This document shows, one piece after another, positions 6,001 through 9,000 of a DNA stretch of 64,000 nucleotides; positions within the stretch are counted from its first letter, which is position 1, and every line of letters begins with the position of its first letter. The stretch is from Escherichia coli. Lineage in GTDB: Bacteria > Pseudomonadota > Gammaproteobacteria > Enterobacterales > Enterobacteriaceae. The position numbers are program-made. The stretch lies in assembly GCF_045037415.1 (NCBI RefSeq), contig NZ_CP173438.1; one strand, written 5' to 3'.

Positions 6001-9000
6001 AAAACGGCACATACACAGGTTCACAACAAAATACTGATGCATCTGACACGACCGCACAACCAGACCTGGTAAAAGTTACCGCTGACGAAGTAAACAAAAT
6101 TATGCAGGCAGCCAGTATCAGCCAGCCTGACGCTAATAAGTTGCTCGCTGCATCACGTGGTGAATTTGTTGAAGGGATTAGCGACCCGAATGATCCGAAA
6201 TGGGTGAAGGGGATTGAAACCCGCGATTCTGTGCACCAGAACCAGTCAGAAACGGAACAGTACGACCAAAAAGCGGAACAAAACAGCCAAAATGCGTTAC
6301 AAAACGAGCCAGAAACGAAACAACCTGAACCAGTCGTGCAACAGGAAGAGGAAAAAGTTTGTACCGCATGCAATCAGACTGGTGGTGGTAACTGCCCTGA
6401 TTGTGGCGCAGTGATGGGTGACGCAACCTACCAGGAGACATTCAACGAAGAAAGCCAGGATGAAGCCCGGGAAAAAGATCCAGAGGAAATAGAAAATGCC
6501 GGACTCCCGAACAAGGAGTGCACCGAAGGCGATCAACATGCCAATGACAATAATGAAATAGGCGAGACAGCAAATCCCTTAATTAAGGTGAACAGTCATC
6601 GTAAAAGCACATCCACCAGCAGGTTGTGGCACCATCTGATGATTGACCTTGAAACCATGGGAAAAAATCCTGATGCCCCGATTATCTCAATAGATGCAAT
6701 ATTTTTCGATCCGCAAACCGGAGATATGGGGCCGGAATTTAGTAAGACTATCGATCTGGAAACTGCTGGCGGAGTCATTGATCGTGACGTCATTAAAAGG
6801 TGGCTGAAGCAATCACGTGAAGCGCAGTCTGCCATTATGACCGATGAAATCCCGTTAGATGATGCACTGTTACAATTGCGGGAATTTATCGACGAAAACT
6901 CCGGTGAATTTTTTGTTCAGGTCTGGGGAAATGGAGCCAACTTCGAAAACACGATTTTGCGCCGTTCATACGAACGGCAGGGGATCCCCTGCCCATGGCG
7001 TTACTACAACGATCGCGATGTACGCACAATCGTTGAGCTGGGGAAAGCCATAGACTTCGATGCCAGAACGGCTATTCCATTCGAAGGTGAGCGCCATAAT
7101 GCACTTGATGACGCCCGTTACCAGGCAAAATACGTTTCAGTTATCTGGCAAAAACTGATCCCGAATCAGGCTGATTTTTAATGTTCAACCCCGGTCGTTG
7201 CCCACCAGCTATAGTGGCGGCGACCATGATTAGCGAACGACGCTCATGGCAAGACTTATTCTGCTCACTGAGTGGGCAAAAGAGGAATTCAGTGAACCGG
7301 TCCCAACTCCGAGTACGTTAAGTAAATACGCTAAAGCCGGAATGATATTTCCTCTCCCCAAAAAAGTTGGAAGACGCTGGCGAGTGGATCCGCAAGCTCG
7401 CTTTGTCGGAATGGTAAACAAGCCGGAGGTGATCGCCACAGATCACCCTGCTTTGAAGAGGATACTGGAAGATGGCGCGCCCGCGAAAATATAAAACCAA
7501 TGTTCCGGGATTATCTCCGTATTTTGACAAAAGAAATAACAAAGTTTACTGGCGTTACAGGCATCCCATAACAGGCAAAAATCACGGTCTCGGCAGTATT
7601 GACCAGAAACTGGCAGAAACTATTGCAGCAGAAGCGAACAGCCGTCTTGCCCGGCAGCAAATGGAACAAATGCTCAGTCTGCAGGAGAAAATTATTAGTG
7701 ATACCGGCGGTTCATCAACCGTTACCATTTTTCTGAATAATTACAGAAAAATTCAACAGGAAAGATATGAAAACGGCGAGATCAAACTCAACACGCTGAA
7801 ACAGAAAGCGGCCCCTCTCAGGGTATTTGATGAACGTTTTGGCACCAGACCGTTAGATGCCATAACCGTAAAAGATGTGGTATCAGTACTGGAAGAGTAC
7901 AAGGCCAGAGGACATAACAGAATGGGACAAATTTTCAGGAAGGTACTGATCGATGTTTTCCGGGAAGCTCAGCAAACGGGCGATGTCCCGCCAGGCTTTA
8001 ACCCTGCAGAATCGGCAAAAAAACCGCAGGTGCGGATATCAAGACAGCGACTGACTTTTGATGAGTGGATGATGATTTATAACGCAGCGGAAAAGGATGG
8101 TTACTTTTTACAGCGCGGTATGCTGCTGGCACTGATGACAGGCCAGCGCCTTTCAGATATTTGCAAAATGCAATTTTCGGATATCCGGGATGGTTATCTT
8201 CATGTCGAACAGCAAAAAACAGGAACCCGGATTGCCATCCCTCTGGCTCTGCGTTGCGATAAATTAAATCTCACCCTAGATGATGTGGTGTCATCCTGCC
8301 GCGATTGCGTTCTTAGTCCGTGGCTATTGCACCACCATCACGCGAAAGGGACAGCTAAGCGCGGCGGGATGGTTAAGCCAGCAACATTAACCGTTGCATT
8401 TAAAAAAGCCCGGGATTCTGTGGATTACAACTGGCGTGCTAATGGCACCCCACCCTCTTTCCATGAGCAGAGATCTTTATCAGAGCGATTGTTCAGAGAG
8501 CAGGGGGTTGATACCAAAATTTTGCTGGGCCATTCGAATCAAAAAATGACCGATATTTACAACGACGCACGCGGTAAGGAATGGAAAAAACTGGTCATTT
8601 GATGACCAGTTTTGCAGAGGGGTTTTGCAGAGGTTTTGCAGAGAAAATTAAAAACGATATCCTGCGGAGAACATAAACACCCACGGATCCAGTCGTACCG
8701 AGTCTTTTACGGTAGTAACACCAGATTTGTACTTAGCCGTGGTATCGATATCCATGTACCAGACTGACATATTCAGCAACCAGTCACGGTTGATGAGATA
8801 ATCCAGGCCTACTTGCCCCGCCACGCCCCATGAATCCTTCAGACTAAGGTCAGATAAACCAAGACCTTCACCGGTGTCATTGAAGTCATTATTAAAAAAG
8901 GTGGTGTAGTTAATACCCGCACCAATGTAAGGACGGAATTTACTGCCAGAATCGCCAAAATACCATTGTGCCATCAGTGTTGGCGGTAAATGATGGACTG

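Follow-up and report, generated by a model that had tools for sequence, protein, structure and literature searches.

The DNA between int and ompW in an Escherichia coli PPompW-family prophage as a probable int-proximal attachment arm

Where a phage integrase gene converges on ompW with only a few dozen bases in between, the question is whether this short spacer is the place at which phage and host DNA meet, and what the repeats and the palindrome found there are for. The locus lies in a 64,000-nucleotide stretch of the E. coli contig NZ_CP173438.1 (assembly GCF_045037415.1), which we call the window, and a preliminary description had taken region 8591-8650 for the prophage-host junction. According to our analysis, 8591-8650 instead lies in the int-proximal attR arm of a PPompW-family lambdoid prophage, in which the three repeats would be arm sites and the hairpin a replacement terminator; we put the probability of this reading at roughly 80%. 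The elements on which the argument depends are the following.

7246..7494, plus strand: xis, excisionase of 82 aa, an open reading frame overlapping the start of int
7472..8602, plus strand: int, lambda/21-type heterobivalent tyrosine integrase of 376 aa
8600-8602, plus strand: int stop codon TGA, read directly from the sequence
8603-8647: spacer, 45 bp between the int and ompW stops
8648-8650, minus strand: ompW stop codon TAA, the ompW reading frame ending at 8648
8648..8740, minus strand: phage-borne replacement ompW 3' end, stop codon plus last 30 codons
8741..8770, no strand assigned: att core, GGTATCGATATCCATGTACCAGAC[T/C]GACAT, the block identical in attB, attL and attR
8771..9286, minus strand: host-derived 5' part of ompW

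Reading the sequence bore out that 45 bp separate the two convergent stops, and a prophage does adjoin ompW at this locus. The junction itself proved to lie elsewhere. When the locus was compared with prophage-free genomes and with the other prophage end, as had been suggested, three-way and six-way alignments of attB, attL and attR mapped the shared att core to 8741-8770, inside ompW, and not to 8591-8650. The insertion is inside ompW and brings a replacement gene end; therefore, the true prophage-host junction (attR) is the core block, about 100 bases beyond the spacer. Prophage-free genomes of the window's lineage match 8741-8900 at 98.8-99.4% identity (99.4% for AR_0089) and only from 8741 onward, and other prophage-free matches cover 8646-8854 at 81%. 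Strand exchange must take place within 8741-8770, and we place the crossover within this block because the polymorphisms at 8762 (G/C) and 8765 (T/C) can be read either way, all six junction sequences fitting an exchange on either side. Positions 8745-8761 are invariant in every attB, attL, attR and attP inspected; the identity block becomes 8739-8767 when a K-12-type attB is paired with a 699-type phage, and in K-12-type alleles an inverted repeat GTGGTA...TACCAC spans 8739-8762.

The part of the ompW reading frame at 8648-8740 comes from the phage. It codes for the tip of beta7, the extracellular loop L4 and beta8. Over this segment the identity to ompW of prophage-free genomes is just 81%, and the segment falls 15 bp short of the native allele found in the window's lineage; the OmpW protein departs from that same-lineage allele only after YMDIDT. 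In strain OV24, 99.99% identical to the window over 9.4 kb, a 141-bp ompW 3' pseudogene lies beside trpA at the far prophage end. The spacer is likewise phage-specific DNA: it is linked to the int 3' end in all 1722 of the 1722 spacer-bearing E. coli records, and the same spacer was absent 3' of ompW in prophage-free genomes, so that the finding named beforehand as fatal to an insertion did not appear. K-12 does carry yciE beside ompW, as first described; in the window's lineage the neighbour is trpA, and yciEFG are absent. The idea of a strain-specific insertion had to be dropped, as about 32% of complete E. coli genomes have the insertion.

The prophage belongs to the already described and common PPompW family, found in that same share of genomes. 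The sections of Nakamura et al. 2021 (PLoS Pathog 17:e1009073, PMC8112680) consulted here describe PPompW prophages of STEC/EPEC and other E. coli, give an att of 121 bp that is 81% identical to ompW, and define the family by an integrase more than 90% identical to that of PPompW. By tblastn, the window Int is 99.7% identical over all 376 aa to intE of PPompW_699, PPompW_14744, PPompW_EH1910 and PPompW_12E129, well above the 90% limit, and the prophage sits inside ompW with an imperfect ompW 3' duplication of about 121 bp at both ends; the 121-bp duplication annotated as a repeat_region in GenBank LC567826 maps to about 8646-8766. Those sections of the article and the GenBank record make no mention of the repeats, the hairpin or a change in the OmpW protein. 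Int carries the Pfam domains Arm-DNA-bind_1 (PF09003; residues 2-71, E 2.6e-21), Phage_int_M (120-170) and Phage_integrase (193-367), and shares 50.8% identity with the Int of phage 21 and about 37% with that of lambda. The xis frame is annotated as an excisionase in OV24 and named xisE in PPompW_699, and NCBIfam gave no informative name for either Xis or Int.

With the junction moved into ompW, the repeats and the palindrome next to int need another explanation. They are arranged as follows.

8587..8613, minus strand: perfect 12+3+12 inverted repeat, extending the 19-bp palindrome across the int stop codon
8610..8619, plus strand: R1, TTTTGCAGAG, proposed arm-type Int site, outermost of the int-proximal trio, lambda P'3 analogue
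8623..8632, plus strand: R2, TTTTGCAGAG, starting 13 bp after the R1 start, proposed arm-type Int site, lambda P'2 analogue
8634..8643, plus strand: R3, TTTTGCAGAG, starting 11 bp after the R2 start, proposed arm-type Int site, lambda P'1 analogue

The three direct copies claimed for the spacer are indeed exact matches, at 8610, 8623 and 8634, and they are the only ones in the window (expected number 0.23; three copies reached in 0 of 100 shuffles). Tandem Repeats Finder reported an array at 8609-8643 with a period of 11 and 2.9 copies, and R3 ends 4 bp ahead of the ompW stop codon. In E. coli variants with flanks 87-96% identical, R2 and R3 are invariant, and R1 reads TTTTGCAGAA, with a single G to A change. 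The conservation extends much further. In 12 Int lineages at 44-100% identity, three TTTTG-N5 repeats stand just 3' of the int stop, spaced by 13 and then 11 bp (12 bp in phage 21), and this holds irrespective of which target gene is adjacent (ompW, icd, potC, ushA and others). TTTTGCAGRR is the motif in 8 of the 12, whose Ints are 53-100% identical to that of the window, and adjoins ompW, ushA and other neighbours; the remaining four, with Ints 44-53% identical, use TTTTGGGGAA (phage 21), TTTTGGRGAR (813R8) or TTTTGATAAM (two Klebsiella icd loci). Each motif pairs with its own Int N-domain sequence, and thus tracks the integrase lineage and not the target, two different motifs being found at the same target icd. 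A scan of viral_contigs with an Int alignment returned 80 loci, only 9 of them with DNA downstream of int, and most IMG/VR prophage contigs end exactly at the int stop. Literature searches gave no matches for phage 21 arm-type sites, and those with the repeat sequences returned unrelated primers only.

We reconstructed the PPompW attP (535 bp) from the two prophage junctions. Its distal arm contributes a fourth copy of the repeat, TTTTGCAGAA, which matches at 9/10 positions, has the same orientation and stands 136-145 bp from the core centre; the proximal trio lies 107-140 bp from that centre. The motif, which is unrelated to the core sequence, is present in both attP arms, three times proximally and once distally. 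At up to 2 mismatches, the 535 bp hold no repeat copy beyond these four, and a search of the distal arm for an inverted counterpart of lambda P2 was likewise negative. Two further, diverged distal arms conserve the distal copy, which is present in the intact attP loci L025 and L038 and in PPompW_699. An IHF-like site precedes each distal copy: here it is AATCAGGCAGTTA, with 1 mismatch to WATCAANNNNTTR and 20 bp inside the distal copy, and in PPompW_699 and phage 21 the match is perfect. Between the trio and the core, the proximal arm of this attP showed no IHF-like site. Because the trio is conserved across Ints, a fourth copy stands in the other arm, and Int has an arm-binding domain, the three repeats are best read as arm-type integrase sites, candidate analogues of lambda P'1-P'3. 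Of the two roles first offered for them, this one has thus become the best-supported, and the other, att core remnants, fails: the repeats show no similarity to the core and stand also beside integrases with other targets.

Three other explanations have to be weighed against this. Seen from the window alone, with the stops 45 bp apart and the ompW frame intact, the spacer does look like a boundary, and one could take it for the junction itself, with the repeats as core remnants or duplications downstream of an intact native ompW. But 8648-8740 is not native ompW in identity or in length, the displaced native 3' end sits at the other prophage end, the common block of attB, attL and attR at 8741-8770 contains no TTTTGCAGAG, integrases with ushA or other genes as targets are followed by the same repeats, and no prophage-free genome with 8603-8740 next to the ompW core was seen, all 1722 spacer records carrying int; we regard this explanation as having next to no chance of being right. 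It is also conceivable, though improbable, that the repeats bind excisionase or another accessory DNA-bending protein and not Int, on the model of the lambda Xis sites X1-X1.5-X2, since tandem direct repeats at about one helical turn are often used by recombination directionality factors, and xis lies just upstream of int. However, the lambda Xis sites occur only in the int-distal arm, and the trio here is at the position of P'1-P'3; the other arm carries a further copy at its outer end, as far out as lambda P1, and the repeat motif changes together with the Int N-terminal domain sequence. The homologous trio of phage 21, too, is annotated in GenBank as the attP subsites P1P2P3. In work by Wang et al. 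in 1997, the minimal phage 21 attP reportedly had to include the outermost repeated dodecamers, proposed as arm sites.

An action of the repeats in RNA, as a regulatory or stability element of the ompW or int 3' UTR, or their origin as a functionless, neutral slippage duplication, seems to us very improbable. A lysogen transcript would hold three CUCUGCAAAA between the ompW stop and the hairpin, and R2 and R3 can pair with each other into a further small hairpin on the int-sense strand. Against an RNA element, integrases down to 44% identity keep the 13/11 spacing exactly, and the TTTTG start as well, beside unrelated genes, and in several lineages the repeats fall outside the neighbouring gene's transcript because a strong terminator separates them; a neutral duplication would not be maintained like this, or reappear in the distal arm.

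The palindrome of 19 bp (CTGGTCAT-TTG-ATGACCAG, 8591-8609) is real, but does not lie wholly inside the spacer as first described, since it straddles the last int codons and the stop; the 12+3+12 inverted repeat that extends it overlaps the first four T of R1. The predicted hairpin folds with -14.4 kcal/mol (z -5.7), with only 4 G-C pairs in its stem. On the ompW-sense (minus) strand it is followed by U6, and the int-sense side is weaker, with U4. Diverged variants retain the hairpin: strain F374 has one compensatory pair, and the one change in strain 504239 still allows pairing on the ompW-sense strand, though only as G.U. Judging from these folds, it probably acts as a substitute intrinsic terminator of ompW in lysogens and, with U4, probably also as a weaker terminator of int. 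The suspicion that the insertion displaced the native ompW terminator is supported by the native gene end at the far prophage end. A consensus terminator scan of 8300-9700 flagged nothing, likely because the maximal stem absorbs A/U pairs and leaves few T in the tail window, and Rfam gave no known RNA family in 8500-8800. A sib-like retroregulator role was considered and rejected because, unlike lambda sib, the hairpin is never separated from int, whether in the phage or in the prophage.

Taken together, we propose that tyrosine-integrase recombination at the core inside ompW (8741-8770) would integrate the phage, and that ompW would remain intact in lysogens because the phage brings its own last ~30 codons (8648-8740); the native 141-bp 3' end and its terminator would come to lie at the opposite end of the prophage, about 54 kb away and beyond the window. 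We infer that the N-terminal arm-binding domain of Int would bind the three TTTTGCAGAG repeats, and the distal-arm copy (TTTTGCAGAA) beside the IHF-like site may act as the counterpart of lambda P1, so that arm-bound Int could bridge to the core via bent DNA and allow intasome assembly. The hairpin at 8587-8613, with U6 on the ompW strand, would then end ompW transcripts.

Practical consequences follow for annotation. Prophage boundary calls and ompW/OmpW allele calls are easily wrong at this locus; about one in three complete E. coli genomes has phage DNA as the last 30 'ompW' codons, and the junction does not coincide with the meeting point of int and ompW. Furthermore, PPompW-family phages may do more than preserve ompW, in that L4 and beta8 are exchanged for a phage-encoded version; the phage-borne OmpW ends differ from one another almost only in loop L4, including a 5-residue indel. 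OmpW is the colicin S4 receptor (PMC2649078) and a phage receptor in Serratia (PMC10132071). If the exchange had such an effect, a surface receptor would be converted by lysogeny in roughly a third of E. coli genomes. The cassette of three TTTTGCAGRR, spaced 13/11, looks like a portable arm module, which seems to stay constant while Int core specificity shifts among ompW, ushA and other genes, and the trio with this spacing after the int stop is a simple signature that could help to delimit attP arms in a large enterobacterial integrase clade. The combined proposal, that lysogeny swaps L4 and beta8 and so converts a surface receptor and that the repeat cassette is a portable arm module, is speculative, and we think it rather unlikely to hold in full.

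Compared with known systems, the locus is closest to the other PPompW prophages, which share the gene order int-xis-exonuclease-dicB and an identical spacer with three repeats; PPompW_699 differs from the window-type prophage (OV24) in its int-distal arm and cargo, and the window's host lineage differs in that ompW abuts trpA. It adds another case to the strategy of phage 21 and e14, namely insertion inside a gene with a spare 3' end, which there is icd and the last 53 codons. Phage 21 has a tandem trio spaced by 13 and 12 bp directly after the int stop. A fourth, exact copy stands about 120 bp away from the core in its distal arm, next to a perfect IHF consensus. A weak inverted candidate, TTTTGGCTAA, was also seen in phage 21. 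In contrast to the window prophage, phage 21 targets icd, uses the motif TTTTGGGGAA in place of TTTTGCAGAG, has its trio about 230-265 bp from the core, and carries a G+C-rich terminator between the trio and the icd' end, whereas here the trio has the hairpin on its int side, overlapping the int stop. Lambda differs too: it integrates between genes and replaces no coding sequence, its trio has a spacing of 10-11 bp and a distance of 52-83 bp to the overlap centre (107-140 bp here), its arm consensus has no clear similarity to the TTTTGCAGAG motif, and it has two distal arm sites, the second of them the inverted P2, as well as the IHF sites H1, H2 and H', where we found one distal site and neither P2 nor H'. 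Nevertheless, lambda Int belongs to this family and shares the three-domain architecture, three tandem arm-type sites (P'1-P'3) likewise come directly after the int stop, and P1, in the same orientation as P'1-P'3 and with an adjacent IHF site, lies 134-144 bp from the overlap centre, the outermost distal site of both systems being placed about 135-145 bp from the core.

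The integrase gene (int) and ompW converge in the window, and the ORF coordinates bear out the distance of 45 bp between their stop codons that had been proposed in the preliminary description. The features read from the window sequence are as follows.

7472-8602, + strand: integrase ORF, stop codon TGA at 8600-8602
3' end at 8648, - strand: ompW ORF, convergent to int, stop codon at 8648-8650
8603-8647: int/ompW spacer, 45 bp
8610, 8623 and 8634: three exact copies of TTTTGCAGAG (R1, R2 and R3)
8587-8613: perfect 12+3+12 inverted repeat

The entire 64-kb window contains exactly three copies of TTTTGCAGAG, all direct, against 0.23 expected, with zero shuffles containing three, and Tandem Repeats Finder finds the same array. 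The reported 19-bp palindrome also exists, but it spans the int stop codon and lies partly outside the spacer; it grows to the 12+3+12 inverted repeat, which shares the TTTT of R1. The earlier observation as such is confirmed.

A 551-bp query across the site, searched against 5426 complete E. coli genomes, had matches in 2434, in 1714 of which int and ompW are contiguous. Prophage-free genomes either align to it across 8646-8854 with an identity of only some 81%, or align from 8741 on at 98.8 to 99.4%. Three junction references were used: the prophage-free site (attB) of AR_0089, which has the same ompW allele type; strain OV24, with one mismatch to the window over 9.4 kb; and the far prophage end (attL) in OV24, which stands in for the one falling outside the window. 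In OV24 the prophage spans about 54 kb, and an ompW pseudogene of 141 bp ("OmpW family, missing N-terminus") adjoins trpA at its far end. In the three-way alignment, the only block common to attB, attL and the int-side junction (attR) is GGTATCGATATCCATGTACCAGAC[C/T]GACAT, at window 8741-8770. To its left, the ompW 3' end in the window is diverged and falls 15 bp short of the native length in this lineage; to its right, the far junction has phage DNA. Adding the K-12 attB and both ends of PPompW_699, a deposited prophage, gave the same picture (identity over 8739-8767); 8745-8761 is invariant in all junction and att sequences inspected, and polymorphisms at 8762 and 8765 do not narrow the crossover further than 8741-8770. 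Because only this block is shared, the alignments place the true junction about 95 to 120 bp inside ompW, not at 8591-8650 around the spacer as had been supposed, and identify 8648-8740 as phage DNA that takes the place of the last 30 ompW codons. In this lineage, ompW is directly followed by trpA (L001:2036-3546 in AR_0089; L003:9080-10077 in OV24), and yciE-yciF-yciG, which lie between the two genes in K-12, are absent.

The lysogen OmpW is the native lineage protein up to YMDIDT, after which its end is phage specified (TAKYKSGVTTVKDSVRLDPWVFMFSAGYRF) and 5 residues shorter, with the differences concentrated in the last extracellular loop. The phage-borne 3' ends of E. coli strains (8648-8740 on the - strand; L009, L010 and L011) likewise differ from one another mainly in this loop and include the 5-residue indel; about 32% of the complete E. 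coli genomes have a phage-encoded OmpW C terminus. Since OmpW is the colicin S4 receptor (PMC2649078) and a phage receptor elsewhere (PMC10132071), lysogeny could possibly bring about receptor conversion toward colicin S4 or phage.

As ompW-sense RNA, the inverted repeat forms a hairpin of -14.4 kcal/mol (z = -5.7) with a UUUUUU tract after it; the tract on the int-sense strand is only UUUU. The left arm must also spell the int codons K-L-V-I; the right arm, although non-coding, is complementary to it. Strain F374 (L010:523-561) carries a compensatory double change in the hairpin (C>T with G>A), and the change in strain 504239 (L009:529-567) pairs G.U on the ompW-sense RNA and A.C on the int-sense RNA; that pairing is kept only on the former hints at selection on the ompW transcript. 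The consensus terminator scanner did not call the phage hairpin. The native ompW terminator of the lineage, a hairpin (-21 kcal/mol) that ompW shares with trpA, has stayed on the displaced piece of the gene, at the far prophage end, in support of the earlier suggestion that it was replaced, and therefore the phage hairpin is likely a substitute ompW terminator. If so, the three repeats would be part of the ompW 3' UTR in lysogens.

The window integrase shares 99.7% identity with intE in the "Enterobacteria phage PPompW_..." records, and the 121-bp "duplication due to insertion" regions annotated in LC567826 map to window ~8646-8766. PPompW prophages are already published (Nakamura et al., PMC8112680), with a 121-bp att that is 81% identical to ompW, and our element is a member of this family, on the phage 21/lambda plan. 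The int 3' end and the spacer occur in 1721 of the 5426 complete genomes, always together; thus, the insertion is common, not strain specific as the preliminary description had it, and the spacer did not turn up downstream of ompW without the prophage. Two IMG/VR contigs (L025 and L038, ~2630-2960) contain an intact attP (int, repeats, partial ompW, core and distal arm) and no host junction; they come either from excised phage genomes or from prophages in tandem or nested arrangement, such as those reported in PMC8112680.

The prophage also encodes a DicF antisense RNA (4015-4066, +; Rfam RF00039, 76.7 bits), which in OV24 lies upstream of dicB and ydfD. An 823-aa exonuclease gene (4710-7181, +) is annotated "exonuclease" in OV24, and its counterpart is frameshifted in PPompW_699. 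An rdlD antitoxin RNA (57692-57757, -; RF01813, 86.3 bits) points to a type I toxin-antitoxin locus of the ldr/rdl kind in the flanking host DNA. A single tRNA-Tyr (GTA) gene lies at 34637-34721 (+); in this chromosomal region K-12 has a tandem tyrT-tyrV pair.

The three repeats belong to the phage and lie within the int-proximal att arm. Besides central and catalytic domains, the integrase contains the lambda arm-DNA-binding domain (PF09003, residues 2-71, E = 2.6e-21); its identity is 50.8% with phage 21 Int and about 37% with lambda Int. We surveyed every integrase relative with downstream DNA available.

Integrase relatives, identity to the window Int, neighboring gene and repeat motif
E. 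coli prophage variants: 96-100%; ompW; TTTTGCAGRR
L055, probably non-E. coli host: 68%; ompW; TTTTGCAGRR
L061: 65%; no gene assigned; TTTTGCAGRR
L062, L063, L070: 55-58%; ushA (NCBIfam equivalog); TTTTGCAGRR
L075: 53%; no gene assigned; TTTTGCAGRR
L092, Kp4865-4 (Klebsiella): 52-53%; icd in L092, Kp4865-4 record stops before the neighbor; TTTTGATAAM
Phage 21: 51%; icd; TTTTGGGGAA
813R8: 44%; potC; TTTTGGRGAR

All 12 lineages have three TTTTG-N5 boxes with start-to-start spacings of 13 and then 11 bp (12 bp in phage 21). Eight, with Ints 53-100% identical to ours, carry TTTTGCAGRR, and the remaining four (44-53%) carry three other motifs; the Int N-terminal domains differ along with the motif, e.g., PGLS versus PNLY at the first strand. 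Among E. coli variants with flanks 87-96% identical, R2 and R3 do not vary, and the sole change in R1 is G->A. In L061, L062, L063, L070 and L075 (Ints 53-65% identical), the repeats lie ~10-60 nt past the int stop, itself at locus positions ~2625-2631, and the arm module appears kept while the core target changes to ushA or other genes.

A PPompW-type attP assembled from the two junctions contains the motif 3+1 times, with no further copy in the distal arm or elsewhere at <=2 mismatches. The fourth copy, TTTTGCAGAA, has the orientation of the trio, 136-145 bp from the core centre and 20 bp outside an IHF-like site; both have conserved counterparts in two further distal arms of much diverged sequence. 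The proximal arm of this attP yielded no IHF-like site.

The preliminary description had offered two readings of the repeats, arm-type integrase sites or remnants of the att core. Their layout, their independence from the target gene and their tie to the Int lineage are what arm sites predict, so we read them as arm-type integrase sites with a probability of roughly 0.8, and the same three features exclude core remnants. The sole new detail is this probable arm-site trio, with its 13/11 layout conserved across an integrase clade with different targets.

The arrangement resembles lambda, in which P'3-P'2-P'1 directly follow the int stop on the int-sense strand, and P1, oriented as P'1-3 beside H1, lies 134-144 bp from the overlap centre, comparable with TTTTGCAGAA. 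The lambda trio is 52-83 bp from the core centre versus 107-140 bp here, because the replacement coding segment intervenes. Phage 21 integrates inside icd and brings a replacement icd 3' end, has TTTTGGGGAA three times just past the int stop (annotated in GenBank "attP consists of 3 subsites P1P2P3"), and carries an exact distal copy and a perfect IHF consensus; its trio is even farther from the core than ours.
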